Positions 18,701-52,017 are shown, numbered from the stretch's first letter. The stretch is DNA of 64,000 bases from Yuukianura sp. NJ FZ-2021 (GCA_046563655.1 CM102290.1:9486001-9550000), one strand, 5' to 3'. A program made the numbers and translations. The notes: a model not told the origin generated them from the sequence alone.

Positions 18701-21700
18701 ATATTTGTACATCTTACATTCTGTGAGAACAAATATTTTATGCGCACGGTGAACTTTTAAAACGCGGTTGAACTTAGCACAGGTTTTTGAATAAGTTGTT
18801 TTCAGTAATTTGAAAACAATCCTATTGTTTGTGAAAGAGGAGTGAATAGTGAAAGGTGTTTGAGTGAATGAAGTTGTTGACTTTATGTTTCAGTTTTTGT
18901 AACATCTTGGTCATGTCGTGTGTTCCTCGTGCACTTGTTTTTGGATTTTCAAGTTATTTTCGGTTCAATTGAATTGCTCCCTTTGGAAGATGGAGAAAGA
19001 CTAGGAAACACAGTTTCTGTTTAATTCCTGTTGAGAAAAGCTGTTGGACCAAAAGTGCTTTTTTTACGGTTGGATTGAGCAAGACAAAGACTCAAGATCA
19101 GGAAGATCAACATTCCAGAAAAAGAAAGGGCGAGAAAGTGAAAACAGAGTTCAATGAGCCTTGACCCCTTGTTACACAAACCATGGTCAGAAGTTGTTTG
19201 ACTTTTCGAACTATAGTCTCGACTCTATTGTAGTCTAGTCGCTAGGAAGGCCTCTAGTCTCCCCTGGGTCACCATTTGATCACAATCTGACCCCAGTAGT
19301 AATTACTCTTTTGCTCAATTTAACTTTCTCTTGAACTGTCTATACGACAAGACAAAACCTCATTCAATTTCAGTAATTAAATTACACCGGAATCTTTACT
19401 TTTGTTGAAATAGTTCCAATTCCGAAGGGATGATACAGTTCTGATACTTTTAGTTTTAATGTGACTAGGCTAGCTACTGTTGTACTAACATTCCTTTCCT
19501 TGTAGAAACGAATTCTGACGAAACTCGTGAAATTGATTTCGAACCAAAGCAGGTCAAGGATCGTTTCTGTCAGTCTTTTTAAAAAAAATCTGGCAGAAAA
19601 TAAAACGCTTCTTCTTCATTTTACACGAGGAAATGTTCATTCTTGATGCGAAAAAGTTCAAAAAATTTATAAAAGCAACCGTGTTACGAGAAGTGTTACA
19701 ATGGATTGCGGTAGTGAACAGAGAAGCGTAGCAGATGCAATGAACCACATAAGAGGTCTAAAGTTGACTCTCAAGCTAAATTAAAGTCTCGTTTAAACGG
19801 AATTTACAGTCTTTTGAAGCAATGCTTTCATTGTATGACCTTTTGTGACCTCGGCGCCTCAACATAACCATAATTGAGACTTTCATGTTTTGTTCAAGTT
19901 TTAGAACAAAGAAACACTCACGTAAAGTTTGCAATTACAAACCTCACCCTAACCCTATACAACTTTCACACAACTTCCACTCAAAATGTAATTTAATGCA
20001 TAGTGAAAGCCAGTAAACAGTGGTTAGTGTCAGTCTGTAGTGTTAGAGAAGCTGATCCTACGTTTCTAAAAGATTGTCAAGTTGTTTTTATCTTGAGATT
20101 GAAACGGTTTAGTCAGTCTTCTGTGTTCTGAACAATGAAAATCACTTAGACGGAATTGGAGGGAAATGGAAAAGTAGAGTTTGAAAATGTCCCGAGAGGA
20201 CTTGGATGGCACTTCTCAACCCTCTCCCTGTTTTCTTTTTCCTTAGGTTAGGTTATGTCTGCTTTGAAGAAAGTAGGGAGTCGATGGTCCTCGTTTCCAC
20301 TTCAATGGCCACGCTCAACGTCACGTCTGACCCTCACGTCACAATCAAATGTCACCTCCGACGTGCTCCATGAACCATGCACGTTGTGGGGTTTGTTGCG
20401 CCGCGCGAAACCTCATAACATATTCACATGTCCAGAACATAGCTTAGCATAACCCGGAACTAGGGTCATGTTGACCTGAGTTCCGTGTCGCACCATGTCA
20501 TTACAGCCATGTCAAAAAGAGCCAATGCCAAGAGAGATAATCAAAAAGAGCCAATCAAATATAGTCAATTTCCTAAAGAGACGAGAGAGCCTATTCCAAA
20601 AGCGTCGAATTCTAGAAAATCGGAAAGCAAGACTAGTACTTCAAGTTGGATTTAATTAACAATAAGTTAGGTTAGCTTACTTTAGTACAAGTTATGAGGT
20701 TTTATTCAAAATGTAGCTAAGCTACTTTGTAGATTTCTTGATCTATTTTAACAATCGGCGATTTTGGAATTGGTTCTTTTGGCATCGGTTCTTTTTGGAT
20801 TGCCTGTTATGATATGGAACCGTTCCGTTTGGCTCTTTGTTGTATTTGATCTTGAAATGACGTTATTAGTGACTCACCAAAAGTGAGTTATGCTTGGACT
20901 TTAGAGGAATAATGCCCTTACCTTCACAATGTCCTGCATCAGACTGTATCTGAACGTCCAGTCCAGCTTGAGCTGTTCGTTTTCTAGAATGTCCTGGAGA
21001 CTGCCTCTGGGACAATACTCTGTGAGGAAGTAGCAGTGCGGATGGTCCACGGATGCTCCGATGAATCTTACAAGATGCTCGTGGTGCAGATCTTTCATCT
21101 GACAAATGGAAACAACAAAACCACCGTTACGATCAATAATGTCGTACAAGATACGCTTTTAGTTTGCATACTTTGGCAGCTCCTACCGATCCTTTCGCTC
21201 ATCAGTGAAAGTGAAAAGTTCCAACGCAAGTGAAACCAAATCTCACACAAAAATTCAACTCCCAATTCGAAACTTACAATTGTAATTTTTGAAGTTCAAA
21301 TCCTTTCTTTTACTTTTTTTTAAAACGAAATTTACACATGTGCAACGTCGTGCTAAAAATCCATTTGTATAAAGTGAGGCCGAATTGTGGTTTTTAAACA
21401 AATTGAGTTTTTCAAGATGTGTAATAGATGTATTAATTAAGAAGAAAAAGGGAGTTGTGTAGCCAGCACTTAAATAGAAAACCGAGCTTTCCCTGTGAAT
21501 TAATAATTACCTTCGGTGAACCACAATTTTTCCTGTTCCGAGCCTTCTATTTACTTTTGAAACCACCAAAATTCACCCACAATTCCTCTCTCTGTTCAGA
21601 ATAGCCCTTTACTTTGTTTAGTCAAACGTAAAAGCAAACAATCAAAAGGGAGGTTGGCATTTGTTGAAATAAGAGCTCATAAAGGTGAGCAATCCCACTT

Positions 21701-24700
21701 CAAACTTTCTCCAATTAATGTGTACAATCCTCTGCAACAGCTTCCATGTATTTCCTAAGCTTTTTTTGAACATTCAGCTCCAAATTTTTGATTAACAGCT
21801 CTGTATTTGTCGGTTTTTCTGAAATCTTGAAAATTAAGGTGGATGGTTCTGTGGACTTAAAGTTAGAGTGAAGGGGAAAGCATGTTTTAATAGAGTTAGC
21901 TACAGTCAATTTTAAGATTTTGATAGGGAGAGAGAGTAGGTTCAAAAACTGAGTTCAGTTTTGAAGTTAAATTGGAAGCGACTTCAAAGGGAAAGTTGAC
22001 AAGGACGAGCAGTAAGGCTCTCCAGAGGTTGTGGAAATATTGTAGCTTTACGGTCTTAAGCAAAACCTAAAGTAGTTGAGTGAGTAACTAAGCGTTAGCT
22101 ATGCTAACTTTTAAAAAATCTGGATTTTAGAGTATAGAATGATAGGCTGGTTTCCGATTTGTTTTTTCGAACATAACTTCACTAACGAGGGGAATCTGTA
22201 ACAAACCTCTAAAAGTTTTTTGTTTTAAAAATAATAAATTTGATACTTTAATGTTTTTGGAAACAGTGAAAATTGGAATAAATTATTTGTACTGCTTGGA
22301 AACTACAGAAAAAGGACAAACAAGAGAAAGTTGAGTCTCTATTTTCTCCGATGTTTCACTTGCAATGTAAATCTTGTCACAAAAACTTTGTCAGACAATG
22401 GAATTACAAGGAATAAAAGTTGTTGCAGAGTACTTACAATGCAGAGGTCCGGAATAAGCGCAACTTGGTAGACGCTTATTTGGAACAAAATAGTGGCACT
22501 GCATGCTTTCTCCTCTGAGGTTTTAAAGGTTTATGTTAGCAAAAAGATGAATAACCTAAACATGCCTGAGCCCAAATGAAATATAACTTGAGCAATGCAT
22601 TTCCCAGCGTAACACATACCATAACCTAATGTCGAGTGTTGATAAACCTATAAAAGTGTTATGGAGTGTTATCCCTGTCAAAACTGCAAGAGCTCTTTAG
22701 TTCCTTATTGGTCTGTGACATGGTTGGTGTCATCCATTGTTTCGCAACGCCTTTTGTGCTGTTTTTGGAAGAGAAAAGACTTTATGGAAAGCCATTCTGG
22801 ATGTTAGATGGAAATTCTGAAATGGGAACTTTCCCCTTTTCTTGGCTCAAAATGTCAGTGGCAGGAGAAGGTTGAGTCAATTCTAAATGAAATGTAAACA
22901 TGGCGGAACAGTGGAAGCTGAAATATTTAAATATTTTTTAGAACCAGTCTGCGCAGAACGTCAAAAAAACCAGACTGAAAACCGAATTTAAAACATAATT
23001 AAAATTATTTAGTAAAAATCAAATGAAACCAGTAGCTCACCCTTTTCAGTTCCAGCAATAAAGGACGAGTCAACTCGATTCGCATTTTGACAATTTTTTT
23101 GATAGCCACTACGCTTCCCTTCAAACAAAGATCAAAATAAAAATTTGTAGCTGCACATAAGTTTTGCGCTTATTTTGCTCAATATAATTTTAAATTTTCT
23201 TTCTAGAAGCTGCTTTGGATACTTACCTTGTAGAAGGCCGTTTTAACAAAAAGTTGTTTGTTGGTTCCAACAAAAGTCAAAGACTCGGCTGAGTACGAAC
23301 TCTGTAAAAGTCAAATCAAAGACGTTTGTAATTGAGCTTTCTTTTTTGAACTGACAACTTCTTTTTCTTCAGTTAGTCGTTGCAAACCATTGGAAATTGT
23401 TCTAATATAGTTGAACAATAATATCATATGTTTCCGAGGATAGAGAACAGAAAGAAGGTGGAATATTTTCACCAACTTTCTCCTTTTCTTTCAGCTTCAA
23501 AGAACGCACTGCATTTTTCTTCACTAAAAATGAATGAAACCAAAGCTTTTGTCTAGTAGCTCTGTTTCTGAAACTTCTTCTTCCAGAAACTAAGAAAAGA
23601 AAAAGTTTTGGTTCTGTTGATGTCTTTTGTTCCAAAAAACGAAAGTTATTGCATTGTCGAAGCCCACATGCTTTTCTGCTTCCTGCACTATAAAACTACT
23701 GACGTTTCCACTAGAGTGATGACTGATTACAAAGATGAAAGTGAAAGTCAATGCGTATTTACCAAATCCAAAAATGATTGATAAAAAGATTGAAGAAAAC
23801 GATGACTTTGATAAAAAACGATTTTCCTTAATAGTTCTCAAAAACAATTGAGGATCTCTTACAGCGTCAAAAAATTTTGATCCGGGTTAAAGAAAATTTT
23901 TTTCTTTCGAATCGCAAAAAAGGCCGTTTTTATTTTTACCTGTTTGATGACGTGTTTACTTTTTTGAAATAGTGAAAGTTTAAATTGATGTTGAGTGAGT
24001 GGAATGGTTTTGGCATTTGAACGACTCCAAGCTGAGGAAGTTTTGTTATTTGATTTTTATAATAGAAAAGTTTTTGTTTTTGTTGGATAACCTGCTGCTG
24101 CGGCAAGCCCTGGCCCATGTTCTGGACTTTTGGGAAAAGATAATGGACGGAACTTTTTAGAAAAAACTTTTTTGACGGAAAATTTTGTTCACACCAAATG
24201 ATGAAGGCGCGTACCTTCATCCACTTCTAAGTTTCGTCCTTTCATCCTAACTGCCGAAGGATAAATGATGTAGCGGTCTTACTTTCTTCCTCTGGAAAAC
24301 ATAAAGCTAACGCTTACAAAAGCCACCATTTTTTCTAAACTGTTTGGTTTTTGCACTTTTTCGAATCGGACGTGCTTTTTTTCTTTGCAATTCTTTGGAC
24401 GGTGATAAAACTGATAAAGGAAAAAATATAGGATACGAGATCCAAAAATAGCTCGCTCAACTATTTCTTTTAATAGTTGAGCTTATTTCGAGGCAAACCG
24501 AATAGGTTTTGCTCCTTTCCACGTTCATTGTGTTTCTAAACTTTTGAAGCTCTGATATTCCTTATCTAAAATCTTCCCAATTTATTAGGAATGAGTTATG
24601 AGAGGAAAAAAGAACAGAAAATTTTGAAGTTTTGGAAGCGAGTGGATAAGAGGGAAAGCGTTATTAGGAGCCCGAGGAAAGTTAGCCTAATATCCTGTTA

Positions 24701-27700
24701 GCGTCGAAGTTAGGTTTGTTTTTGTTGTATTTGGGTAATAAATTAAATTGAGATTAGCAGAGTATTGTCTTTGTAGGGCTCTTTTGTCACTTTCACTTCC
24801 ACGGAGACCGTGTGGAAAGGGCTTTAAGGTTCCCATGGTTCACTTTAGGCCTTAAAAGAAAACCTAAGCTAGGGAGGACGAAGATGTTGGTGGGAGGGAG
24901 ATTTCATTTCTCCTTATCCTCCGAGCCCTGTAGTATTAATCAAATTTATTCCAGGAGAAAGTAGGCTCTCCAGGTCTGAATGCTAAACAGAGTAGAGGCG
25001 GAGATTGGATTTTCCATGGAGGAAATTGTATTCAAATGCTCTTTTAAAAGACCAACGCACAAATCTAATGAAATTCCCTTTCAAAATAATCATCCCATAG
25101 TCCAACCTTAACCTTATAATCGAATTGGAAAAAGATATCTATTTCAAATGAGGGGTGACGAAAACACGTGTGAGACACATAAAATGCAAACAAGGCTTCA
25201 TTTGAAACCAGCCATTTCGGACCTAGTCAACAAACAAAGTTTCTAGATTTTAGAAACTTTGACATTACAACAAAAAGCAATCTGAAACATTTTAAGCATA
25301 GTACTATAATAGTAATTAACTATTGTGTGATTCGGAGAAATGTTTTTAAAAATGAAAAATTTAATGCATCTTCTTGTGAAATGACTTTCCCATTTTCTCT
25401 GCTTCTTTCGGAATACGGACTTGGTTCTGAGAGCGTCGTCTTGAGTTTTGAAATTTGTCAATTTAATTTTGAGGACTGTATAATGAGTTATTCCAAGAAA
25501 AGTTTTCCAAAAATAGAATATTAAAAATATCAAGATTTGCACCAGATGGGAAGTTGAATATGAAACAATTTCTTTGCGTGAAATTTTCCTACGTTTTTTG
25601 TCAACAAATTTTGGAAACTGCACATTGCGTTACTCATTTTCATGAAATTTCTCATTTTCATTTTCATGAAAAATCTCAAGTTATAACAAAGCAACTAGTA
25701 AGAAGCTCCAAGATTTCGACATCGTATATTGAATCGCTCTTTTTGGCTTCCTTTTGTGAACATTCTTAAAGTTCAATACAAAATTGACTAAAACCTAAAA
25801 CCGCCATCAATAAATTTGCTCATGGATTACTTTTTTTCGGGAAATAAAGTCTGGAACAATCCCACTATAGAAATTTTTGATTTCAGTTTGTGTATGTGAA
25901 GTGGTTGCTTACAATAACAGAATGGCGGGCAACACTGAACCGAGATCCCCGCTTTCCTTTGCTATCACTTCGTTTCTCTGTAAGAACATCGCACCAATTG
26001 ACTTTCCACGTCATCGACGCAATTTCAGCCTCCAGTTTGTAGTGCCTATAAAAGAGGCATAAAAACAGTAGTATTAGTTTTCACTTTTCAATCAAACGTT
26101 CTAGGAAAGGGAATTAATTACTCAAGGGAAGTTTCGACGTCAAAATTCTAAATTGCAAAATTAAAAGTCTGGTTCAAAATTTAAAGGAACAACTAAAATC
26201 ATTTGATTTCTGAAAGTATAAAAAAGAAGTAAGTTTTATGACTTTTCTTTTGAAGATGAAAATTCCAGGGAGAAATTATGTCTGCATAGAGAACCCAAAC
26301 GTTCCAAGCTATACACCCACATAAGCCTTAAGAATTTGATTTTTTTTTCAGGAAAAAAGACAGTCTCACAAAGTATTTTTCAGCGGAAGACAACCATGCC
26401 TGACTAAACCTTGAGAAAAAGCGGAGTCGTAAAATCCAGTCTCTCAGGATATGAACACGATAGAAAAGGAAATAGCAAAATGATTTGGAAATGGATCAAG
26501 GAACGGGAGCAGTAGTAGACGCTGTGAACACAGGTTAGTTTGAACAGCCAAATTGATGGCGCCTGTTTAAAAAATAACCTCGTTTTGTGAGAGGTCTACA
26601 TATTAACCCTTTATTTTATATTTTCAATTTGAAACGGGTGAGACAGTTTTCTTTTTTTCGAAGTCGATCTGAAGGATCCATTTGCTCCAGGAAAGAAAAG
26701 CAGGAAAAGGTGGGCAAATGGCGGGAATTGACTTGGGTTCTATAGAAATTCAAATAAGAAGGAAACGTTGTGTTCTTCGTCGTGAGCTTACTCTTTTGCT
26801 TGTTGCAGGAAGCGACGGGAAAAGTAAGCGGATGAAGACGGAGAAAGTTGCATGACATTTTCCTCTAACATAAGCATAACATAAACCAAGACAGGTAAGG
26901 GAATAGTTGAACAAGGAAAGCAAACTAGTCTTTCTCTTTTTTTTTGAATTTCAGAATTTCAAAAGTAGTTTATATTTCCAGTTTCTTCGGGAAGTAGCCA
27001 GAACAAGAGGTTTCAAAAATCTTGTTTCTGCCAAGGGAGGACTTAAGGATGCATATCAAAGTCTCGTCATGTGTTTCAATGATATGTAGAGCAGCCCAGG
27101 AAGCAGTGACTCCTTGCTTCTAGTTTTTCCAAGAAAAAGTATAGGAGAAAAGATGAATGAAAAGAAAAGTAGACAGCAAAGTCTTCTTCGTGTTCCGCTT
27201 CTTTCGTTTGCTTTTTTTTGTTACTTTGTCTTCCATACTTGATGAAATGGAGGCTCTCTTCGTGCCAAAACCATTTTTTTTTTAAATAAAATTTGAATTT
27301 AATCTGCCGCATAATTTTTCATACTCCCCGTGGTCCATTGCCTAAGTTCAAAAATTGAATCGTTGATGGCCAAAATTTGGCGCTTAACATGAGAAATTGA
27401 ACAATATGAACAACGCTTCATGACTCGAACTTTTTTTTTAATCAAAAACTATAAATCACTTTATTTACTTTTTTTAGGTCAACTTCTGCTGTGTGACACT
27501 TCAAATTTCACTGCGCCAAAGCACACTTAAGTAATCACAAGGTAAAGTTTTAGGAGAGGTTTAATTGGGTTCTTGCTTGGACTTATTTAATTGTGTTTTC
27601 TTGTTCTGGTGTAATAAAACTGACTCAGTGGTTGATTATCTTAACATTAATATGCTATAGGTAAGAGCGCAGCATTTTCAGCTCCATTACTTTTTTTTAT

Positions 27701-33700: not shown

Positions 33701-36700
33701 TGCTGACATTTCCAGTAATACCTACAAAAAACGCCAGAGGTCAAGGAAAGAAAGAACAAAAAGAGCTTTAAATGTCGGCAAAAGAGTTGCGCAAAGGTCA
33801 AATTTGAAGGTGGGTTTGGTGCAAATTGAATTTTGAGGTTTTACTCTCACCTTGAAAGGTTTTTCCCCACATTCGCTTAGTGATTTCAGTCCCATTGGAG
33901 ATGGAGTAACCATCTCGAAGTGTTTCGTTAAGCGCTTGGGCGTAGAGCAGCACAGCGTCATAGAACGCTGTTACAAATGGGTTCACTGGTTCCTCCCCGA
34001 ATGAAAAATTGAATTTTTCCAGTGCTGTTTTCTTCACTTGTTGATCAAATTGAATGTACTCAGTGTTGTTAGGCGGAGGACGAACAGTTAGAGTTAAAAG
34101 TGCTTCATAAGCTTTCTTTGCTCGATCGTTGTTTTCAGGCGTGTCCGTCTTACTCAACCACGGTTTGTACTCTTTATTTGGACTGGAGAAACATTTGTAG
34201 CATTTTAGCATCATTAGCATCAACAGTTTCGCAAAATTTTCAAATTTTAACAAATGCTTTGTGAAAAGTCATATTTGCTAAAACGTTGTTTACTTTCTTC
34301 CTCTCTGGTGAAAGTGACACGAAGCCAGGAAAAGCAGAAACTTACTTTGTAAAGAGCTCGACATTGAAGAAAACATATTCACCACTGGAAACCATATTGA
34401 GCTCTTCGGCTGCTAACAGAATTTCTCGAATTTTGGCTGGTGACGCACACAGCACGACGACTAGGGAGTAAAGTCAAAAAACAAAAACAAAAAAACAACG
34501 AGAATTTGAGTTAGAAAAGTTGAAAAAGTAAAAACAAAAGTCAGCGAAATACATTTACAAATGTCACTTGCTCAGTTGTGCATCACTCTTATTGACATGA
34601 CACGTTGCGTACTAAAAGAAAAGTTGTGAGAGGGAACCAATTTTGCAGAAATCTAATTTTCCAAAAAGTTTTTTCTTTACACCTTGCGCCTTTCTGTTTC
34701 GAAAGGGGTCAGAGACCCTTCAAAGTCACCTTCTTACTTTTAGGTTTTTTTTTTGCAGTAAGTTATTTTATTCGCACACACTTTGCGCAAACGTCTTTCT
34801 ACTAACCTGTGCAGTAGTATGCACTTATGTTCTGCAATGATGGGCTCTCCTAGGAAAAGTTAAAAATATCGTTACGAGAAAGTTTAAGGTTGGAAAACTT
34901 TAATTTTTGTGTCTGCTACAATCTTGGGCGTCCTTTTTAACGTCTTTTTTTGAAAGACTTTTTGAAAGGAAACGTTTCATAGAACTTCTTAACTTTCACA
35001 ACTCATGTCAATCTTAATTAAGTTACTGATCCTGAAACTATGTTCAGGATCAACCGAACTTAAAACTAAAAAATAACTTATCGTTAGCCGCATGCTTCAC
35101 TTTTTATAGTTCTTGTTCAGAGTTATAAATTTACATCCAGATCGAAGAGACAGTTAAACAGACCGGGGAAACAAAATTTTGGTCGCGCAATTTTTAGTCT
35201 GGTGAAATTTGCAAAAGATTTTGCGTTTGGTTCATTACGACAAATTACGAGGAATTCACAAATTACGACCATTTTAAATCTAATAAACATTTTCTAGTTG
35301 CTTTTTTTTTTTGAAAAGTTATGAAGTTTTTGGCGTTCTTAAAATTATTTATCGTACAGTGTCAGCATCTACTTTCTGTTTGAACTTTCAGCCCCACTTT
35401 TCCTTAACTTTTCCCTTGTTTTGACTAAAAATGGAAATTTTTTTCAGTCAAAATTTGTAGACGAAGTCATAAATCAGCGTTTGAAGGAGTCTACGCTTTG
35501 GCAGACAAAGTACTTTCTTTTCCCGTATTCTTTCTCTGCCTCTCTTCATCGCGTTGTCTCTCTCGCCTTATTTTGAACATGACCTCAAAGCTGACACGAA
35601 ATGGTTTAGGCGGGTTCAAACGAATTCGTTCAAAGGGAACCCACCATCCAAAAAAAAGAAGAAAGTAAGGAAAAAGTTCTCTTCCGTTTCTAAATCCCTC
35701 TGCATGGATAACAAACTTTTATGGAGAGGGTACTTTGGATCCCTCTAGATTCCATTGTTCTCGCCATGCCGATATGCATGGAACCTGACACGTTGTTTCC
35801 AACTGAGAAGATGGAGTGAATTCTTGTCGCGCCATAAACAGGAACAAAGTTATATTTTAAAAGTCGCGCCGCCATGCTCGTCTAGAGTCACTCACTTCTG
35901 GCCTTTGTGGAAATTTCCAAGAGGAATTCCTTGAAATTAATTTTCCCTCCCGTGGTTTCATCGAAACTGCGGAAGAACGGCGTACTGTTGAAGGCCGTGT
36001 AGACTGTGCCCAGCGTAAAGTGACACAAGGAGTGACCTTTGCCTGACGAAATGGCAAAGTTGTGATAGAACAGTGCCAAATGACGCCACTGAAACCGTGC
36101 CAAAATTTCCGTAAAAACTTCGGCAACAATACTGTACGATCCAGCGAACCGTGTGAGGGTGGGATAGTGTGGATTCTTGAGTCGAAATGCATCTGCTTGA
36201 GCACCCGGTGTAAGCACAGGAATACTCCAGTAGCCAGCGTAGCGTGCCACTGGAGCAATCACATAGTCGCAGATTGGACCCAGGAACACGTCTGTGCATC
36301 AAAAACAACAAAAAACTCAAAAGCAAAAGTCAAAATTTAGTTGTTCCATTTTTCGGAAATGTCGCTCTTGCTCCTTGCTAAATAATTTAACCTCAAAATT
36401 TAAAATATTGAAAGGCTCTTTTAGTTCCAACGCCCAAAATGAATTTAAATCGGACCTTCCGCGCCCGAAAATTTAGTTTTAAGTTCACTGAGCGCAAAAT
36501 GGGTGACAATGAGCTTTTGGGGTTCAAAAGGTTCGAAAAGTCGTCTCAACTCGGTGTCTGTTTCAATGAGATAAGTGCAAGCGGGTAACAATTGAATTTG
36601 AAGAACAAAGATGGACGGAGTGGCGCGTATTAATATTAATTTTGAATTCTCGTTTTTGGAATATGATGGCAGAGTTTAAGTGCAACGGAGGCTGAACTTT

Positions 36701-39693: not shown

Positions 39694-41887
39694 CCCAGGT
39701 TGCCAAAAACAATGTTTTTGCAACGCGCGTTGAGTTTTCGTATGAATCTAATACGGTATCGGTGCTGAATTTGAAGTCATTGTAAGCCGAGCGTGCAAAC
39801 TGCATGTTTTTAATGCCTAAAAAGAACATGCGCAAAAGTTAGCGGGTAATATGCTTTGATATGGTGCATCGGCATCCTCGTAAGTGGGTTACACATTGAA
39901 ACAGTATGGATTACGCGCATGGGTAGTACATGATGAAATGGTTATGCAATTTTCATTGATGACGCAATGCATAACTTGTAGTTGAGTGAAGTGAAGTGAG
40001 TAAAACCCAAAGTAAATTCACTGCTGTTTAAGTGATGATTTTCTCACTATTGTTTCGCCGCCAATTACATACTTTGAGTCTCTGGCTTAAACTTAAAACA
40101 AAAGAAACCACGTTCCGTTAAAAATAAAGCGTGGTGAGTCAGTATCAAACATGACTAGGAAAAACTTTTCAGTCGTTTTTTTCTACGAAGAAAACCGATA
40201 CTCCGTAATTCCATCCACTTGGTTATCGGACACAGAGCATGGACTGTTAGCAAGTTGGCCAGGAAATCGAAAAAACTCGAAGGTCAGCCGCTCAGCCGAC
40301 AGTGTACCGGACGAGAATTGGACTAAGTATCCAATACAGTTTCTCAAATCTTATGGTAAGTTCAATTTCATATGCAAGTATTTAGTCGTAGTATGAGCGT
40401 TTCGAATGTAACTAATCTTCATTTTTATATCTAGATTCGTACGATAAGGTATGCAAGAAGGCTGAAACTTTAAAGGACTCAAACACCCTTCAGATTTTGG
40501 ATTCAAGTGAAGATTCGAACAATCGAAAAACAACAACTTTCCAAAACGTTGCAGTTGAACCTCCATCTACATTCAGAATCATTCCACCTACTACAACTCC
40601 ACTATTCGAACCGGAAGAAGTGTTCCAGTCGAACTCTGATGGTTCGGGGGACATACTAGGTGCAAATCCATAACTTACGTGATATATTATCATTAGTTAA
40701 AGAAGTTACTAAGTTTGAATATTAATTTAGATTCGAGTCAAGTGATTCTGCACTACAATGTTGACCAAACTGAAACCTTTGAAGAATCTGTGAAAGAAGT
40801 CAGAGGTAGATTCACAGCATTCCTATACTACACAAGAATCATGAAGTTTATGTATTATTTTTTTTTAGCTTTTTAGAAAGCGACATCAGAAAAACAAGAA
40901 AAAATCTTGTTGGAGCTGGGCGACATGAAAAGACTGCTTCGAAATCTAGCCTCAGTTCAAATCAATCAGCCTGCGCGTACATTTGCATACGGAATTCTGC
41001 CATTGAAAAACGAGGGGGAGCTTATGCAAGCTGAGTCTGCAATTGAAGACCAGACGGAATACAACTTATTGGTAAATAATTCATTTTACTCCTCTGGGTT
41101 AGATTTAAAAACTTAAAACAGTTAAGAACTGACTATGTTCTTTTTAACAGTGACATGAATTGTAAATTCTGATTTTTTTTTAAGAATAATTTCTTTATTT
41201 TATCTTACCGTAGGTGAACGAATTGAAACGTGCCGGGGGATCAACTGTGTCCAAAGCCATTGCCAATACACTGAGGGCTTTGTTAACAAATGATTTGGCA
41301 AAGAAGGTCCGAATAACGGATACCTCCGGGAAAATCTCGTTTGGAAGTCTAACTTTGTGCAAAGCTGTGAGAGGTTAGCCTGTAACATAAATTTTCCTAT
41401 CCATTAAGCCTATTTTTTCTACTCTAATTTTTGTTCACTGGCTCAATTAAATAATGTAAAATTTAGTATTAGTATTTATTAAGTATTTTGTAATTTTAGT
41501 ATTGTATTTAGAGTTTACGTGTAAAGTTTGTGTATTGAAACAGTATAGTATCTGAACTAAATAAAACATGTGTAACAAACCTTTGCTGTTTCTTCATTGA
41601 ACACGTAATGTTTAAGTACGGTTCAGGTAATGATTTCGCAGCGGAATTTTCATAAATACAATGTACACACGGATTCAGCACGGATTCCGCACACAACCGA
41701 GGGGAAAACGCAACACCATTTCATTGCTCTTTACACGCGTGTTAAGGCTCATCATTGAAACAGCATTGTTTCCTCACAGCTATCACGTTATGTTAAGCTG
41801 TGTAAAAGTTGTCCAAATACTCAACTTTTCCTCATGATTTTTTCTGAACTATATCAGCGGGTAAGCATTGTGTTTTGGCAACCTGGG
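39694..41887. mobile_element. Non-autonomous DNA transposon, CMC/EnSpm-like (CCC...GGG termini, 2-bp TSD)
   Basis: TIRs CCCAGGTTGCCAAAA (39694-39708) / TTTTGGCAACCTGGG (41873-41887), extending imperfectly into ACAATG. Flanked on both sides by CA. It contains a spliced ORF but no recognisable DDE transposase. Confidence 0.8.
40151..41378 (+). pseudogene. Transposon-borne spliced ORF, DUF4806-like accessory protein (probably truncated or disrupted)
   Basis: Putative exons 40151-40355, 40435-40659, 40731-40805, 40869/40877-41071, 41214-41373. The N-terminal SVVFF...SVIPSTWL...SWP...PDENW pattern and the C-terminal LPLKNEGEL...LVNELKRAGGST...LLTNDLAKK...GKISF pattern resemble DUF4806-family proteins (recognised from memory, not searched). 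There is an in-frame TAG at 40874 if the 40868 acceptor is used, and I found no terminal exon. Confidence 0.6.
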
Positions 41888-44800
41888 CATGCTCCTATTC
41901 TGTGTATTTTATAATTACAAATTTTGTGCGTTGTTGAAAATTGTTCGTTTTAGAAACTTTAGAACCTTGATAAGAACAAAAGTAAATGAAACTGAACAAA
42001 ATCCTTTTGTTTTTAAGGGATACAAAGGACCATATTATTTGCCAAGTCTGACAGAGGAAATAATTCAACCACTTTTTTCGTGTTTCCGCTGTTGTTTTGG
42101 AGAATCCTTTTCTGAAATGAGGTCATAAATTTTTAATCAAAATTTTATATGGATTGAACAACTACTTCGGTTTTTCTTTGTTTCTATTGTACTGTTTTAT
42201 GATTTGAAATTTTTAGTTATACTTTGTCAACTTGTTTTTTTTACAAGAACTGCTTTTTCTGTTTGTTTTTTTTTAACTTCAGACCTTCAAAAACAATCAA
42301 ACTTTTTTTTCCTTTGAACTGCCACGAACTGCCAGGCCAAAATATGTGCCAGGTCAAAGTTCAAGACAAAGACTGACGCGCGAAGATTTGAACTTTGTCC
42401 GTTCTCGGCGTTGGTCGTTATTTACGGTTAACAAGATTTTTTATGACAATTGAAACTAGATTGGCTATAACTTTGTGAACCAAAGTCAAGAAACAAATGA
42501 CACGTCAACTCCATATTCTCCTGTTCCATTTTCCAACAAAAAAAATGGCACATGAAATTACCAGGAGGACCAGACCAGAAGTAGGAAAAAGTCTATTTGG
42601 TTTTGCCAGACGCCGAAATGCACATCGTGACCTTCTTGTGACTCGACCAAATTTGGTGGATTTTGTCGTAAAATGGTCAAATGACCATAAGACGTTGATG
42701 GTAAAAATGGAAATATCAATTGACTTTCCATTTTGTGGCTTTGACAGGAAAGTTAATTTTCTAGAACAATGAAGTGGAACGTTGTTGAAGGAAGAACGAG
42801 TAACAGCGCTGGCTCGTTTAGCTTCTATTTTTTAGAAGGTAATTCCATAAATTTATTGGAAGCTGGACATCAAATTATATTTCCAGTTGTGCTCGTTAGT
42901 TTCGATGCCGTTATTCCAAAAAAAGATTTTGGTTAACAAAAAAAAACGTTAAGTTTTCTAAAGTTTTCATGGTGTTCAAATCGGTAAAAACAACATAATG
43001 TCAATGTTTTCAAGCAGCTTATTAACCGTCATTTTCTTTAAAAACTACGTCGTTCAAAAACAGACTTTTGGAAAAGTTCCTTGAACTTTTTTTCCTGTTG
43101 GTAGCAGATCTAGATCTGAAGGAATTTGAACAAATGAACTTGTCTTTTTCTTACAATGATGTGCGCAAACTGCAATCTTGCAACTGCTGCATTCTGTGTG
43201 CAAAAGTTTGTTTTTTCAACTTTAATTGAACACAGACAGTGATGACCTTGGCGAACAAAGAGTGTTCATGTGGAGGCAACTGCAATGAATCATTTGATTT
43301 CTGGAAGTTAGCTGAAGCGTCACCAAAACCATAAATTAGAGTTTAAAGTTAAGCGGATTTGAATTATATGTTAAAAAATGGACATGGTATAGGAGGTGTA
43401 ACTAAAAGTTGGCACACTGAAATTCAATTTACAGTTTTAAAGTGCTTTCCACAATTTAGGTTTCGACTTGCGAGGATTTATTATCGTAAACATTTAAAAA
43501 GGTTTGGAGCTTGAAGGTTCAATTGAGAATAGAATTGGAGTGGAGATGAAAGTTTTCAATGAAAAATGTCTCCAGGAAAGCCGAAAAGCTAAAAGCTAGG
43601 TTAAGTTTTTTAGTTTAGGTTTTTCTGACTTTGATTTTTCTCTCAGTAGTTGGGTTCAAAGTGGGACGGCAGCACTGTGAGTTTATATGTACAAACCAAA
43701 AAGTCTCGCTAAAATTCCCACCACATTTCAACCAAAAAGAATCGCGGCAATTTGTCTCGGAATTTCCTAACAAGGCGTATCTCCAACTGAGGATTAGTAT
43801 ACAGAAGTTTTCTCCCCTCTATTGTTTTTGGAGACTACTGGCGAAATTTTCTGAGACGATCAAAAATTTTCCGTTATCAAAATTCAGTGGATTGCTAAAT
43901 ATTTTTCTGGCATTTCCCAATTCCTCAGATACCCACCCAATTTAGCCCGATATACCTGTTGTAACTCTCATTTTCACCACGAAGCTTCAATCAATTCTCC
44001 ATTCTATTCTAACCTCTAACCTTACAATCTTAGCTTAACAACAAGTTTCAAATCAGTTCATTTCTTACCTTGCTAACGCTAAATCTTCGTGGTACTGGTA
44101 GTAAATTTCCCTAATCCGATTAACATTGGGGAAGGAACTTGTGCTTTCACTTTCGACAGGGTCGATTAACTCTGGTGTAACAAACGACGAGAGAAATGGA
44201 AGATGAAGGGCAGAAGGCGGGAAAAGTCAAAATTGATTATAATTTGAATGGAAGGGTTGAGGTCATTTCATCACACGAATCTGCCTGGCATCACTACACA
44301 TCATCCCTATGAACTTCTACGTATATTTTGTAATTTCAAAAGATTTATAGAATCTGCTCAACCTCATATTGCGTTTTGATCCAAGTTACCAGGAACTTAC
44401 ATACGGAAAAGCTTAGAGTTTTAGGAGATTGAATTCAATTAAAGTTCATGATTCAACTTGGACATGGAACTCAACTCTATCCGTTCATCTCCTTCCATGT
44501 TGGCACAAATTGAGCAAACGGGATTGATGTGACTGATCCTAACTTGTTCTAACGTTGTTGCAAATTCTTGGTGTTATGGTAGGATTTACGTCCTTAATTT
44601 AACTCCAAACTCCCACTTTCCCGTAGGTTTTGTTTAAATTTAAAGTGAAAACTGAGCTGTTTTCAAGATAAGTTTTTAAATGAGATCCGTTTCATGGTAC
44701 TTTGTTCAAAAAGTTTGAAACTTTGTAAGTTACAAAGACAACAGAAACTTTGGTTACTGGGGCCGTATTTTGAATTAATACTAGACGTGACGAAGGTGAG

Positions 44801-47567
44801 AAAATTAATTGAGCACACTTCAACATCAGACAAAACGGAAACGGCTCAACCGGAATTATGGAAAGTTGTTAGAAGTCGCTAGCTTACCTTCTACCTTGGA
44901 AACCGTTCTATTTTTGAGCCTCCCGCGTAATCTTTACCGTGGACTTACGGCTCAAACGGAGCCTTAAAGGCTTCTATGATTCTACACTGAAGAAAGCGGT
45001 TCGTTTAATTGATCAAAGGAAACGTGCTACAACCGATGGAAGGTTTATATAATTTTCTGAGAACACTTGAACAAGAACCGTCCACCACGACACCAATGTG
45101 ACCAGTGAATAAAGCATGGGCGGTAAGTAGATTTTGAAAAACAAATACTGTTAGTACAAGTGACGAAACACCATGCGGAAACACCGTATCGCGTACCCTT
45201 GAGTCCTTCTGGTTAACACAACTTTTGGAGTCCTTGTCCCTTGGTCACTGGAGCAAGAGTGAAAGGTTGGAGGAAGAGGAACTTTCTCTTTCTTCGGGCG
45301 CCAATTTAGCATTTTCTCTTATGCGACCTAGGCGCATGAGCAAGACGGAGGTTTTGGCGGCAGTTAGGCCAACTAATTGAAAATCCCATTTTGAGGTTAA
45401 AACAGGTGATTAGAAAGACAAAGACTTTCTCTAGACTTAGTCTTAACGTCCACCGCTTTCCTTTAGGGAGAGTCATAAATAGAATTATTAATATGGAAAT
45501 GAAGTATGAAGACAAGAGAAAGCAAAATGTCAATGTCAATTATCTTTTGGACCAATTTCCATAATTCCTTAGCAAAACTTTGAGCCAATTTTGCCCTAAA
45601 TTGTTTTCAAACATCCATACTCTAGTGGTATGACTCCACTGCTCGTTTCTCTCCTTTGGTTTCTTGCTACTGTTAATATACATTGTCAAGTTTTAATTTT
45701 TCAGCTTTTCGTTTTCAGCTAGGAAAAAATTGTTTTATTATAAATCCCACTCCATTTTTAAGATTTGAGAAGTGCGCTTTTTATTTATTTATTCCTTCTA
45801 TTCATTTTTTTTCTTATATTTACTCTTTTATATTTATTTTTTACCTATTTAAAGTTGGAAAATCGCACAGGTGAGGACAACTTTTTGCAATTCTTTTTCA
45901 GGCTTGACTTTAGAAAAAGCTAGTTAACAAAAAATACCAAACTTCTAGAAACTGATTTTTACGCCTTAGGTCATTTTTTTTGAAACAGCCAAGTTTCAGT
46001 GTATTGTCAGCAGAGACAGCGCCATCTCGTGGGATGCAAACAAAATTTAGCCCCGTTAGAGCTGGGGAAAGTTTACCCCCAAAATTTCTGACAACTTCCA
46101 CTTTCTCTTGTGGATGTCAGACCCGTCGCAGTTCAGATATTCAAAGCTAACATGACACGAACAACCTAAACCTGACAACTTTCCTTTCCAAGCAACGTCT
46201 CCTTTCCGGTTTATTTAAAAACCCAAACTTCAGTTTTCAATTTCCAGCTTCTAATGTTGTCAAATATTTTTAAAAGAAAATCAGAACCCCTGGAAATATT
46301 AATTCAAGTTTCAACATACATAGTCAACCAGAAATTGCAATCCGAATTCTCACTCTATGTATCAATGCAATTTTTTGTTTTGTATAACATTAATTAGTTG
46401 AATCATTAGACATCGGACATAATAACTTTATAACTTTGAAAATTTCTTATGTCTAGCCGATGCAGAGAAAGCGAAGGCTGAATCATTCAGTTTTCGATTT
46501 ACTTGAAATGAACTTGATCATCTTTAGGCCTCGTGGACGTCTTTGTGTATTTTTCCACAATCTGTCCTTATGCTTTATTATTCCAAACCTAACTTTTGAG
46601 CAGTTCCCAACTTATGAGAAGTCTCATAATGAAAACAAAAATTGAAAGGGAACCGCTGTTTTTCCGTTGGCTCAAATCCCTGTTCGTCCTAAAGGGATGG
46701 GACCAGTTAAGAGAAAGTCAAAGACCAGTGTTTGAAGACAGCTCGTGGCATACAATGGCAAAGCAAACTCCAGACTTTTTAAAAAACGATGTCGTCCAAC
46801 TTTGTAATCTTCCTCAACAACTAAGCACAAAAGATGACTTTCACCTGGGTTCAAAATATTGTATTCCAGGTATTTCATCAATCCAAACAACTCTAAACTA
46901 AGCGAAGCATTTAAGTTTATCGGGACATTAAATAAATAGAAAATTATTAAATTTTTATTTAGTTGAAAACATCATTGCACGGAGATTTTTCAAAAAACAT
47001 GAAATGCCAATGTAGTAGCTTTCTGATCATATTGCAGAAAACACAGAAACTTAAAATAACAATTCTAAGATTCAAATATAAGCCTTTGAAATTTCACTCA
47101 CACTGTGTGCAAACATAAGAAAATTTATTTATTTCTATTTGAAAATGGCACGCTCTTCTCTTCACTGTTCCGCGTCTGCATCACAATCCCTTACTTAGTA
47201 AGATTGATTTTTTGTTAAATTTTTTCTAGCTAAAAAATGTTAAATTTTTGCCGGAATTTGGTACACGAGGGAAATCTTTGGAGTGAAAGTAAATTCATGT
47301 CTCGCTGGACGTCAAAATTGGAATGACTTAATACCCATCTAGGGCATTTGGGGATTGTGAAAAATAGGCTTATGTAACACACCCGCGCGATTCCTAGGAT
47401 GTTTAGTATGTGTCTGGAATGCACTAGCATTACAATGTCATGTCAATAAGTGATGCGACACCGTTTTTGTCTACCATTCCCATAGAACAACTGAATACGT
47501 CACAACCTGAAGTGTATTTTTAACACTAACTTTGCCGTAACTTACAACATAGCCTGTAAAAACTTAC

Positions 47568-50500
47568 CTGCATATTTGAGGCCCACGTGGTTCTGAAGGT
47601 TTTCCTGTAATGTTCCGTTGACATTGTTCGTGTCGAGGTCAAAGCCACTGAAACTCCAGCCTTTCTTAAGCGATTCTACCATGGATGACATGAAGAAACG
47701 ACAAGTTTGAAGGCCGGAAACTTCTTCCATTCCGTCTTTTTCGTACATCAACATCACTTTCCTCCAACTGAGTCTAAATCAAAGGAAACCGATTCATTCA
47801 CTTTCTCCAATATCAATAAACATCAAGAGTCGTAAACAGTAGACCTGCTCCGCATCTTTCCATTAGAGCGCTTCACCCACAAAATCTGCATTTTTAAAAA
47901 CTAATTTTAGAACGCGTATTTCAAAGATCTTTGCACCGAGGACATAAATTTCAACGTTAATGAAGACAACTCTTCACAACTTAAATGATGGGACTGGAAC
48001 AAAAAATGCCCATTCCTGTTTTAAATTAATACTTTTAATGAAAAAAAAAGTTAGGCTAAATTTCTAGGTGTAGTCTGACAGTCAAATGTGAAATGGCAAG
48101 TTGTCTCATGTCTGAAGCTTATGACCCGAAGTCTTACGGAGGCTCAAGGTAAAGTGAAGTGGATGAACTGCATGTTATATTCTGTAGCTTTAAATTTCTT
48201 AAATGTCTCAAGGGATATTAGTGATTACGTTAGGCCAAGACTGCAGTTACTTATTATTTTTTACAGCAGGACAAGACTTTCTAAACACAATATTCATCTT
48301 GACATGCCATTAGCGTTGTCAACTCAACACAGGGGAATCTACCTACAATTTTCTTACCAGTTTAGGCTTTTTTTTTAAGAGAAAGTGTGACTTTAGGTTT
48401 TAGTGAAATAAGGCATCCAGTAGGTAGCAACATCTTTCAATTCCAACTTTTTATCAAATATATTTAAATGTTGAAAAAATTTTTTAATCTGTGAGGTAAT
48501 GACCTAACTTATTAACAATTTAATAAGCTCGTTGATGCATAATATCCTAATTCAACCTCATCTGAAGGTTCTCTGTTAAGGGATATTAAACTAATAGATT
48601 TCCTTTCAATTTTGTGGTTGCTTTCAGAGATTTTGATGAAATTAATATCTTCTCAAATTTCATAAGTCATAAGCTTTCAATTTTCAAGAAATAAATTAAC
48701 TTTCGACCAGAACGTGTTTTAGAACTGGAAATTGAGTACATTGAAAAGCTAATGAAGGGCACGTGCTAATTAATTAGTGACTAAATAGCAGAACAGCAGA
48801 CAGGTACTTTCTTTGACATGCACAAAAGACGCCTTCGCAGTTTCTCCAAACGCAAACCACAGACCCGTATCCAGGACGGCTCGGTTTCAAATGAACTCGT
48901 TCGCACAATGCAACAATTCTCGCGACCTACCTAATAACTACTACGTTTGCAAAGTGTCTGCAACATATTTCAACCAAATGACGGATTTAAAAAATTAATC
49001 GCAAGCAAAAGAACTTATGCTATATTTCATTGCAACTAATAATTCTGGTTTAAAACGAAAGGAAAATAGTTTTCAAGCATGTTAAAAGACTATGCACAAA
49101 CTGACCATGATTCAATCCATCATCAGCTTGCTTTTAAATCAGATTCAGAACAAAACTTTGCTCTGTTCTGAAACAATTTTTGTGGTTCTCCTTATTGGAA
49201 ATGAATCGTCCTTCATTTTCTCTCAAAGTAAACTAGCCGAAAAGTTCTAGTAAACAATTTTAGTAAAGTTAAACTACAGAAACTGAAAGTAGAATCCCCG
49301 CTGAGATTTTCGTTTTGGTCGGACTCACTTTTTGGAAGGCAGGAGTCTTAGAAAATCGCAAAGTTTTTGGAAAATTGAGTGGATTCTTGTGTCCCGTTCC
49401 AAAAAACTTACTTTTCAAAATATCCAATGAGAAAGTCGACCATTTCTGTGAATCCAATTCCTGTTCGGGTTGTCAAAAAGTATTCAGAGTCCTTGGTTGT
49501 TTTTGGTAGAGCATAGTCTGCAGTTAGGGCTCCAGCAGTAAGTAATGGAGTATCCCAAAACTGAAGAAACCGAGCCACTGGAGCTGTCATTTTCAAATGA
49601 AAACAAGAAATGCAATTAAATCCAAGAGAGGAACTTAAAATTGATTACTTGTTGCCTCATACTTCCTAAACAGGAAAATAATTTCTGGCATTATTACTTT
49701 TTTGAAAAATTAAAGCAAGAATTCCAAATTGCGCCTAAAGGTTTCCATTCATTTTAAAATTTATTAAACTAATGAAAACTTTATTTACATCTAGTCGAAA
49801 GGCGTCTATAGAGCGACCTATCTTGAAAAACCGCAAATTTCCAGTTTCAAAATTTTGGGTGCGCTTTAGCGGCTTCTCATGCATACAAATAACTTTTCTT
49901 AAACGTATTGATTATTTCACCCAAACAAAAAAAAATCAAATTCACCACTTATAAAAGAAATGGAGAAAATTTCAGAACCAGCGTTTATAAATTACAATTT
50001 TTCAAAATACTTAGCAGTGGAAATAATTCCTTTAAGTTTAATTTTCGATTATTGTTTATCATGAGTAGATTTTTTTTTAACTTTTTTGTGGTAACAAACA
50101 CCATGTCGTTTGTCGTTTCAAAGCCGCAAATTCAGAAACCCTGGAAAATTTTGGTGTCCCTTTCTCTTTCACGAGCATTGTTCGTTGGAGCCAAATTTAT
50201 TTGGGTTTCCTGAGGCTTATTGTGTCCAATTTCCCGTGTAAGTACTCGGTGGAATTGGTTGTATTGTCTTAGTTGTTACATCTCCTTGTACAACTATTTT
50301 GGTCCTTTACATCCTTGTACCTAACTACCAAATTTAGGAATTCTAAGAAAGTGCACTTTAAACAAAGTAGATGCGGAAATGAGGCGTTAAGGTCCGACTT
50401 AAATTCCCTGCGGAGACCGTTGGGAAATATTACAATGGAAGTGAGAATTCGAAAGTGAAAGTGACAGGAGAAAAGGAGGTTGTATGCAACAGGCACTTTT

Positions 50501-52017
50501 TGTTGTTTCTTGACACCAACCAAGATACTTCAGATCAAGCGATGTTTTTCTGAAATTGGTTTTGGACAATCGGAAACAGAATGGGTTTAGAACAGAACCC
50601 TTCAAGGACTTCCAAAGTCTCGTGAAAGCCTTTTCTTTTCAAATCTACGAACCTCCTGACCGACTTTTACTAAAACTAATTCCTGGATTTAGCATCATAA
50701 ATCAAACTAAAGTTAATAACCTGACGTCGGTTAGAACAAACCTTTATAGTTTTGGGCCCTGCGGGAACACAACATTATTAAAAAAATAAAGACTCATATA
50801 AGCCAATTTTGTCAAGGTTAAAAAATATAGTTTTTGTGCTGCTGCGCACATTTTCCAAAACTGTTTACGCTAGCATTACAAATTTGATGACAATGAATCA
50901 GATCATGCTAAATAGCACAAGCCTGTTCTGTTGCGAACATTTTTCTAAATCAAAAAAGCGACGTTTCCTAGTTTCACGAAGTGTTGAAAAGATTACTAAA
51001 AGCGTCTAGTTCGGAGAAAGCGCAGGATGAACGTTCTTTACTTAACGGAATTAGAAATTCAAGAAAATCATCATCAGATTTGGTTCATAAATCCGTTAGC
51101 GTAAAAGAAAAGATTATTCACCAAATCAAATGCACAGCGATGAGCTCTTGTTATTAAAATTAATGGAGCTATTTACGTCGCTTTTGCTACAAAACACGGC
51201 TTTTACGTAAACTTAATGTTTAAAAAAATCTGACACATTTTATGGTTTTTGTTTTTAAAAAAAGTGAACCATCTTGATGATCCATTACGGATACTGAAAA
51301 GACTAGAAATTTTTAAATTGAGTTCCTTAGTCTTTGTTCGTTAATGTTAATGAACTTATATAACTTAACTTGTGGTTGCAGCAGTGAGCAACATTACTTG
51401 AACTTAAATTGGCACACGACATTCAACAAAAACTTGATCTTAAGCCATGTGGCTTTTTTCTCTTTGACTTCCGAATCTTTCATTAAGGACGTTTGTTTAG
51501 CATTAACCGATCTGTACTGTCTCAAGATCAATGAAAAAGTTTTCGGAAAAGTGCAACAAAAAACTCTGAAAAGTTAGGAAAATCACTTACCCAGAGCCAA
51601 TTCACACGAAGGACCAAAGAACACGTCCACTGCATTGTTGAACTTTGACCTCATGGCTTCCATGGGTGCAATGATATTAGAACAATTGGAGTCAATAAAA
51701 GTCAAATGCACTGTGTGACCATAAAGTAGCTCAAGGTCTTTGACTTTTTCAAATCCCAGTTGAATCGCTGGCCCTGTTCTGCGAACAGACGCCATGTACC
51801 TAGAATCAAACGGGAGAAGAACCGTGACATTGATGTCTCCCGACCTTGACGTTTGGTCTGTTATGTTAGTCGTCTGCTCCTGTGGCGTTCGTCTTCCAAG
51901 GAATAGCCTTGTAGATGGAATGCACTCATGGGTCACGACCCCTGTCACAAGTAGTTGCAAACTAAAAAGCAGGAAGATGGAGCCGACGCAATCGGAAATG
52001 AAACTTGAGTTTGCCAT
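47568..52017 (-). CDS. Alternative N-terminal module A of the receptor guanylyl cyclase (signal peptide + ANF-receptor ectodomain N-terminal part; 3 exons, 268 codons + 1 nt)
   Basis: Exons 52017-51591, 49583-49412 and 47773-47568 have canonical AG/GTAAG sites and join in frame: ...DSNCS...DVFFGPSCELAL|APVARFLQFWDTPLLTAGA...GYFEK|LSWRKVMLMY...QTCRFF...VGLKYA|. The module ends in phase 1, compatible with the acceptor at 34460. I found no further cyclase-like exons between 47567 and 37708. Confidence 0.85.

Follow-up and report, generated by a model that had tools for sequence, protein, structure and literature searches.

Two candidate alternative 5′ cassettes for the ligand-binding domain of one natriuretic peptide receptor-like guanylyl cyclase gene

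Can a single receptor guanylyl cyclase gene furnish two different ligand-binding modules for one signalling body? The question is raised by a gene on the minus strand of a 64,000-nt stretch of the genome of Yuukianura sp. NJ FZ-2021 (GCA_046563655.1 CM102290.1:9486001-9550000), hereafter the window, to which all coordinates refer. An earlier interpretation made without database searches (the sequence-only reading) had described two divergent N-terminal modules lying in tandem upstream of a shared exon with a VVLC motif; these are called here cassette A (exons A1, A2 and A3), cassette B (exons B1 and B2) and exon C. Here, we report that exon content, splice sites and profile searches support both cassettes as real exons of a single NPR-A-like receptor guanylyl cyclase gene. 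We also consider it probable, with some reserve, that one gene with these two alternative 5′ cassettes can make two receptors.

Exons of the two cassettes and of the shared body

All six exons were found at the positions, and on the strand, that the sequence-only reading had given them (Table 1). Exon A1 contains an ATG, a hydrophobic leader and the first two of four conserved cysteines, and it ends in phase 1 after ...FFGPSCELAL; a stop lies in frame 18 nt 5′ of its ATG, so that the open reading frame (ORF) begins at 52035. Exon A2 resembles the A region of hymenopteran relatives, and A3 brings the third conserved cysteine (QTCRFF) and the ending ...VGLKYA. In cassette B, the ATG, the hydrophobic leader and the first conserved cysteine are in B1, which is 51-54% identical to Allacma and Folsomia proteins, while the second and third cysteines are in B2, an exon of 396 nt (132 codons) with phase 1 at both ends. 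Among 13 matches, the best for B2 were proteins of Folsomia candida (69% identity) and Allacma fusca (66%). Cassette A totals 805 nt and cassette B 850 nt; each leaves one base over (phase 1), and the frame is open through both A+C and B+C. The earlier statement that each cassette has its own start codon and signal peptide holds for the ATG and the hydrophobic leader; the leaders look signal-peptide-like by eye only.

An AG also stands 2 nt 5′ of the B1 ATG (…TTCCAG|CG ATG; 37708-37712, minus strand). If it served as an acceptor it would join A3 in frame to the entire B1, but it is probably not used in this way, as the tract upstream is purine-rich.

The two cassettes are collinear homologues, as had been proposed, with 47 of 187 residues identical (25%; E 6e-25). 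Their phase-1 ends directly precede the VVLC motif of exon C, and A3 stops in the same alignment column as B2. The conserved cysteines are divided in the same way in both, with three in the cassette and the fourth in exon C. An Athalia orthologue in which A is joined to the common part can be aligned over its full length to human NPR1 (9bcl; E 8.6e-295) and, over the ectodomain, to 1dp4 (E 3.5e-59), which places the gene among the NPR-like receptor cyclases. Through this orthologue, the four N-terminal NPR-A cysteines, whose disulfides we take to be numbered Cys60-Cys86 and Cys164-Cys213, are in register across the junction between A and the common part. The claim that both cassettes keep the upstream cysteine of a pair with its partner column in the shared exon thus agrees with the alignment, which predicts that the cysteine of exon C would pair with the third cysteine of either cassette.

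The extent of the shared body was examined with two profiles, one built from 19 N-terminal modules and one from the common part of six full-length relatives, which were run over all 3458 stop-to-stop frames of the window. The module profile matches exactly five exons at E values between 1e-19 and 1e-50, namely A1 (E 4e-27), A2 (E 4.7e-20; profile positions 88-146), A3 (E 2.7e-19; positions 146-215), B1 (E 3e-23) and B2, and nothing more below E 0.3. The common-part profile finds a single collinear series of exons from 34473 down to ~9710, with profile positions 36 to 876 in order, in which exon C scores E 1.3e-16. The window thus holds one common exon series only, and the sequence-only reading was correct in giving cassette A no private downstream exons. 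In the 37.8-47.5 kb interval between the cassettes, the best match of either the module or the common-part profile is at chance level (E 8.6); the two longest ORFs of the spacer have no Pfam match, and no long repeats were found there. A third cassette upstream of A was considered and rejected, since only chance-level, non-collinear matches occur there (62425-62589, E 0.39; 53998-54102, E 1.8).

Domain matches agree with this order. Pfam ANF_receptor (PF01094) matches B2 (E 1.2e-12) and the segment 33801-34268 (E 6.8e-13), and A1 weakly (E 0.0019, short of the curated cut-off); PK_Tyr_Ser-Thr matches 20904-21158 (E 2.8e-9) and 18208-18393 (E 1.6e-5), and Guanylate_cyc matches 12363-12524 (E 7.8e-7). 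The 23-residue hydrophobic stretch assigned to the membrane directly precedes a conserved juxtamembrane motif in 25886-26080, and collinearity with the Allacma protein reaches 10073 in tblastn. Binding, transmembrane, kinase-homology and cyclase parts are all present in order, which upholds the original identification of the gene as a receptor guanylyl cyclase. Splice sites of the common exons past C are approximate.

Table 1. Features of the receptor guanylyl cyclase gene in the window
Feature	Position	Strand	Sites or evidence
A1, cassette A exon 1	51591..52017	-	ATG, ORF, donor GTAAGT
A2, cassette A exon 2 (APVARF... segment)	49412..49583	-	acceptor ...GACAG, donor GTAAGT; phase 1 to phase 2
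A3, cassette A exon 3	47568..47773	-	acceptor ...TTTAG, phase-1 donor GTAAGT
Spacer between cassettes	37708..47567 (9.9 kb)	-	putative site of the cassette B promoter
B1, cassette B exon 1	37254..37707	-	ATG, phase-1 donor GTTTGA
B2, cassette B exon 2	35896..36291	-	acceptor ...CACAG, donor GTGAGT
C, first common exon, VVLC motif	34346..34460	-	acceptor ...CCTAG, donor GTAAGT
Remaining common exons	9710..34268	-	collinear tblastn to Allacma protein, common-part profile, Pfam
Rest of ligand-binding domain	33801-34268, 33330-33740	-	
Transmembrane segment	in ORF 31928-32098	-	23-residue hydrophobic stretch, by eye
Kinase-homology domain	~23310-15453	-	
Cyclase domain	~13440-11497	-	
C-terminal tail	10255-9710	-	

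Past the 3′ end of the cyclase gene, the opposite strand carries two neighbours: an alpha-galactosidase A gene at 4603-5568 (+), with Melibiase_2 matches at E 3.5e-33 and 1.7e-46, and a clathrin adaptor small chain gene at 8112-8522 (+; E 2.7e-26).

Hymenopteran gene models, selection and the age of the cassettes

The two-cassette design is already present in public hymenopteran annotation. When the A-like part of a Megachile model was used as query, 69 proteins were obtained, all of which we take to be hymenopteran; together with the 13 B2 matches, three of them shared, 79 proteins were classified. A is joined directly to the common part in 51 of the 79, and 14 have a B2-like segment between A and the common part; ten are B-type without A and four are irregular. 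Six isoform pairs (from Megachile, Ptiloglossa, Odontomachus, Colletes, Apis and Athalia) differ solely by a 132-residue insert, which starts DAF(L/F)GP..., ends ...ARI and has the size and position of B2 in the window. A-type and B-type isoforms of one gene on one contig are annotated in Venturia canescens (XP_043286656.1 and XP_043286627.1), Chelonus insularis (XP_034940601.1 and XP_034940599.1) and Neodiprion fabricii (XP_046432627.1 and XP_046432622.1). Two non-RefSeq models from Vespidae have the modules in series: Polistes exclamans P0074 has an incomplete A followed by a complete second module and the common part, an order that implies the same genomic order as in the window, and Vespula germanica P0022 has A, a B2-like segment and the common part with gaps between them. 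The junction of A with the common part, on which the sequence-only reading had relied, is therefore the commonest annotated form in Hymenoptera (51 of the 69 A-bearing models), beside B-type isoforms of the same genes; in the window it is a predicted junction.

That cassette A is maintained can be judged from its first exon. At a cut-off of E <= 0.001, a word-indexed search of A1 against longer proteins had no match among 224 candidates, and a full phmmer scan with A1 gave 207 proteins. The best of these are short ORFs, 40-67% identical to cassette A as against 24-35% to cassette B. When 19 of these A1-like ORFs were aligned, similarity in 18 stopped exactly after ...C(E/D)xxL and was followed by G(K/R/M), a break that indicates read-through of a phase-1 GTAAG, GTAGG or GTATG donor at the A1 boundary. 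The sole exception, P0094 (120 aa), runs in frame past the A1/A2 boundary into ...ATAPV and represents either a genome without the A1/A2 intron or a spliced transcript.

A scan of metagenome contigs gave 13 related loci. The closest, L001, was compared with mature A1 over 81 codons: identity is 93.8% in protein and 75.3% in nucleotides, but 38% at third positions. The nonsynonymous rate (dN) is 0.044 and the synonymous rate (dS) is saturated, too much to estimate. The comparison, which addresses the possibility raised earlier that module A might be evolving neutrally, supports strong purifying selection on exon A1; high protein identity combined with saturated synonymous sites rules out a decaying relic, at least for A1. 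In the flanks of the 13 loci, A2, A3 and the common exons were not found on the right strand at E <= 50 except at L005, where the entire module lies in one exon; layout and selection were thus compared for A1.

The relationship of the cassettes was examined in a 24-module tree with two NPR-A modules from fish as the root. Cassette B of the window joins Folsomia, Allacma, Cloeon and hymenopteran B modules in a clade with support 99/99, and falls inside the springtail group; together with the B2 matches to Folsomia and Allacma, this makes a springtail source probable. Cassette A falls together with hymenopteran A and one module from Artemia (support 90/90). A recent duplication, with cassette A placed among the springtail B cassettes, was rejected: it costs 77.6 log-likelihood units (p value of the approximately unbiased test, p-AU, 1.3e-52). 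Grouping cassette A with all B cassettes was rejected as well (p-AU 0.0034). Two sequence characters of cassette A are absent from B-type modules. The loop after the ...TAGA motif is 3-4 residues longer in cassette A of the window, hymenopteran A modules and a Limulus module than in B-type modules, and the same three end in ...VGxxY(A/S/G), whereas B-type modules and fish NPR-A end in ...(K/N)AR. Taken together, the tree tests and the A-specific loop and ending support A and B as ancient paralogues and indicate that their duplication is older than the springtail-insect split.

The first introns of the two cassettes, both phase 1, are separated by 12 codons: that of A follows ...FFGPSCELAL, and that of B precedes DVFLGP... 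The position in A is common to 18 of the 19 A1-like ORFs, and that in B fits the start of the 132-residue hymenopteran insert. The different positions suggest independent intron gain or intron sliding after the duplication.

Predicted products of the locus

If the locus makes two receptors, each cassette would contribute a start codon, a leader for secretion and, of the mature extracellular ligand-binding domain, the first ~210 residues. Transcripts from a putative promoter 5′ of A1 would have A1-A2-A3 spliced to C, with B1 and B2 skipped, while a second putative promoter in the spacer would give B1-B2-C. The two receptors, for which the sequence-only reading had estimated ~1239 and ~1254 aa, would be identical from the VVLC exon on, that is, in the rest of the binding domain and in the transmembrane, kinase-homology and cyclase parts; in the N-terminal half of the binding domain, ~75% of positions would differ. 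The corresponding region of vertebrate NPR-A contains the first disulfide and the upstream half of the second, makes up most of the membrane-distal lobe and provides many hormone contacts. Owing to the ~75% divergence in this half, the A and B receptors probably differ in ligand or dimer partner. A third product, A1-A2-A3-B2-C, would be expected as a minor in-frame by-product, because a cassette B of two exons leaves B2 with an acceptor. As cassette A fully replaces B1+B2 and keeps the cysteine pairing with C, we regard A joined to C as the functional product, with A+B2+C a by-product that is tolerated. The two promoters, the A3-to-C junction of this genome and the functional difference between the receptors are what we infer; the exons themselves are read directly.

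Several points weigh against such a clean exchange. The A3-to-C junction and the cassette promoters are deduced from the genomic sequence, and the hymenopteran counts are counts of annotated models, which may go back to RNA or to model building. The splice from A3 (phase 1) to B2 (phase 1) is equally in frame, a possibility that the sequence-only reading had missed and that is annotated in 14 of the 69 A-bearing hymenopteran models. The B2 acceptor lies upstream of the C acceptor in the transcript and appears about as good (pyrimidines at 13 of 20 positions, against 15 of 20), and B2 inclusion could thus be the main product of the A promoter. Pairing within the RNA that might loop out B1-B2 was looked for in a repeat search of 34300-47800, which gave 11 inverted pairs of 18-32 nt with 75-89% complementarity, mostly A/T-rich; none has an arm within 600 nt after the A3 donor and none is paired with the B2-C intron, so that this search found no sequence feature enforcing B2 skipping. 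As to the history of cassette A, the selection figure covers A1 only, the grouping of cassette A of the window with hymenopteran A alone is weak (68/45), and its branch is long, so that its exact placement needs care.

The strongest competitor of the two-receptor reading follows from the A3-to-B2 splice. Transcripts of the A promoter might mainly keep B2, with the clean junction of A to C minor or absent here, in which case the second receptor, instead of a clean swap, would have part of its binding domain repeated over 132 residues. The frame, the normal B2 acceptor, which is transcribed before that of C, and the 14 hymenopteran models with exactly A+B2+common and the same flanking junctions all speak for it. 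We nevertheless think it unlikely, since 51 of the 69 models join A straight to the common part and since cassette A is a complete collinear stand-in for B1+B2, with the same end codon and the pairing cysteine kept; B2 would, moreover, duplicate a segment of a fold that presumably has room for one copy. A predicted structure of an A+B2+common isoform (Copidosoma P0061, 14-row alignment) was unusable, with a mean predicted local distance difference test score (pLDDT) of 32.2 and a predicted template-modelling score (pTM) of 0.25.

Cassette A might instead be a separate small gene whose transcripts end after A3 and encode a secreted half-domain of ~270 residues, a decoy or binding protein. Module-only public models do exist, such as the 242-aa Artemia protein XP_065567288.1 ('receptor 3-like'). 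These short models, however, end by reading into a GT donor ('...YA|SS', '...YG|GK'), as expected of an unjoined first-exon cassette and not of a natural stop. Half of a two-lobed periplasmic-binding-protein fold with its third cysteine unpaired would also be unlikely to be stable, A3 keeps a strong GTAAGT donor, and hymenopteran models join A to the chassis; we give this explanation very little weight. Still less credit can be given to the idea that an old partial duplication left cassette A behind as an unexpressed relic, or that its adjacency to B is an assembly misjoin. The long branch of cassette A would suit a relic, yet its three exons are open with canonical sites, dN is low with synonymous sites saturated, A1-like exons with the same donor position occur in many relatives, and the window contains no N letters. 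The 14 hymenopteran models of A+B2+common likewise imply the order A, B1, B2, common, and the two vespid models keep a matching order. This explanation is already largely refuted. Classical mutually exclusive internal exons were rejected, as A1 and B1 both start with an ATG and a leader and A1 is preceded by an in-frame stop. Two receptors made through alternative 5′ cassettes thus remain the reading that we prefer.

Wider family and comparison with known systems

Some annotated relatives contain more than one module. In Limulus P0232 (XP_022238773.1), residues 30-236 and 261-474 each form a module ahead of the common part; P0164 contains three N-terminal modules, and P0118 (Batillaria), P0122 (Bulinus) and P0096 (Polypterus) contain two each, complete and in series. 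Such models may be tandem alternative cassettes that gene predictors have concatenated, which would make cassettes a wider habit of this receptor family, or they may instead be artefacts of assembly or of tandem genes; by eye, the two Polypterus modules are closely alike, as are the two Batillaria copies. Other predicted proteins, of 212-275 aa, consist of a module only: P0233 and P0139, both from Artemia, P0114 and P0116. P0233, which is named 'receptor 3-like', P0114 and P0116 end at the cassette boundary followed by read-through of a GT donor ('...DYA|SS', '...DYG|GK' and '...SYG|GK'), whereas P0139, a partial model, does not reach it. These are probably orphaned first-exon cassettes annotated as separate genes. 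The nematomorph Gordionus P0239 (XP_065320097.1, 'receptor 1-like isoform X2') is, at 1792 aa, ~600 residues longer than its relatives, with ~260 residues before a single module and a gap inside the common part.

A broader proposition can be put forward tentatively, and we hold it to be rather doubtful as a whole: the two-cassette design might be an ancient conserved feature of the arthropod orphan NPR-like cyclase, older than the springtail-insect split and perhaps pancrustacean, given the A-type module of Artemia. One gene would then give two ligand-distinct receptors, possibly including A/B heterodimers, and arrays of half-domain cassettes might recur in protostome receptor cyclases. A design of that age would have kept a two-receptor gene for more than 400 million years. 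If one gene makes both receptors, differing in the half-domain with most hormone contacts, and already did so before the lineages of springtails and insects separated, there are probably two ligands or two modes of binding, and knock-down or expression studies on the common exons would mix two receptors. Annotation is affected as well: A-type cassettes are entered in databases as isolated 'receptor 3-like' fragments or placed in a row with B, and, if the proposition is true, protostome cassette arrays are now hidden as concatenated or orphan 'module-only' models.

The closest known counterparts are the hymenopteran genes annotated as 'atrial natriuretic peptide receptor 1(-like)', for example in Venturia canescens (XP_043286619.1/…627.1/…656.1), Megachile rotundata (XP_076394980.1 and XP_012146919.1) and Odontomachus brunneus (XP_032687886.1/…891.1). 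They have the same junction codon, with a common motif VVMCAN… in place of the VVLCASP… of the window, a B2 equivalent of exactly 132 residues that is kept or skipped, and B-type isoforms of the same gene; cassette B of the window lies in their B clade and cassette A beside their A clade. The differences are that cassette A is 31-36% identical to their A modules (BLASTP), that the window represents a much older, springtail-like lineage, and that the isoforms here are predicted from exons. Because the design is already implicit in hymenopteran RefSeq isoforms, what is gained here is its age, the selection on A1, an explicit reading of the arrangement and the built-in possibility of a hybrid isoform, and not a new principle.

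Compared with vertebrate NPR-A (NPR1, GC-A; 9bcl, 1dp4), the domain order is the same and the four N-terminal cysteines are in register; we know of no alternative N-terminal cassettes for NPR1. The gene probably belongs to the same orthology group as the orphan arthropod NPR-like cyclases (Drosophila CG31183; dipteran clade OGC2). CG31183, EHR, Gyc32E and Gyc76C are described as conserved across arthropods, the last three without vertebrate orthologues, in one account (PMC13267572), and OGC2 is presented in another as an orphan orthologous to vertebrate RGC-A/B (PMC3863949). A third source calls the fly orthologue of the ANP receptor uncharacterised and states that no invertebrate natriuretic peptide is known (PMC12611267). 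For the fly EH receptor, only an 'isoform C' is mentioned (PMC12393706). In our literature search, no paper came up in which a receptor guanylyl cyclase is said to have alternative cassettes for its binding domain.

In gene architecture, the nearest parallels are the clustered protocadherins and UGT1A, in which tandem 5′ variable units, each with its own start and leader, are spliced to shared constant exons. The present locus resembles them in that its homologous 5′ units stand in tandem and bring their own start codons, leaders and presumably promoters, and in that there is one set of constant exons, the first of which each unit can join in frame. It differs in having two units only, each of them split by introns. 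Downstream variable units without acceptors, by which skipping would be automatic, are not seen here, since the acceptor of B2 is normal and an A+B2 hybrid is possible, as annotated in the hymenopteran A+B2+common models. In working principle, the parallel is with FGFR IIIb/IIIc, where swapping half of the ligand-binding domain changes the choice of ligand while the signalling chassis is unchanged. Such a half-domain swap on a fixed chassis is what we propose for this gene; in the FGFR case, however, the exchange uses internal mutually exclusive exons under one promoter and concerns another fold, whereas here it would be made through 5′ cassettes that bring their own start codons.

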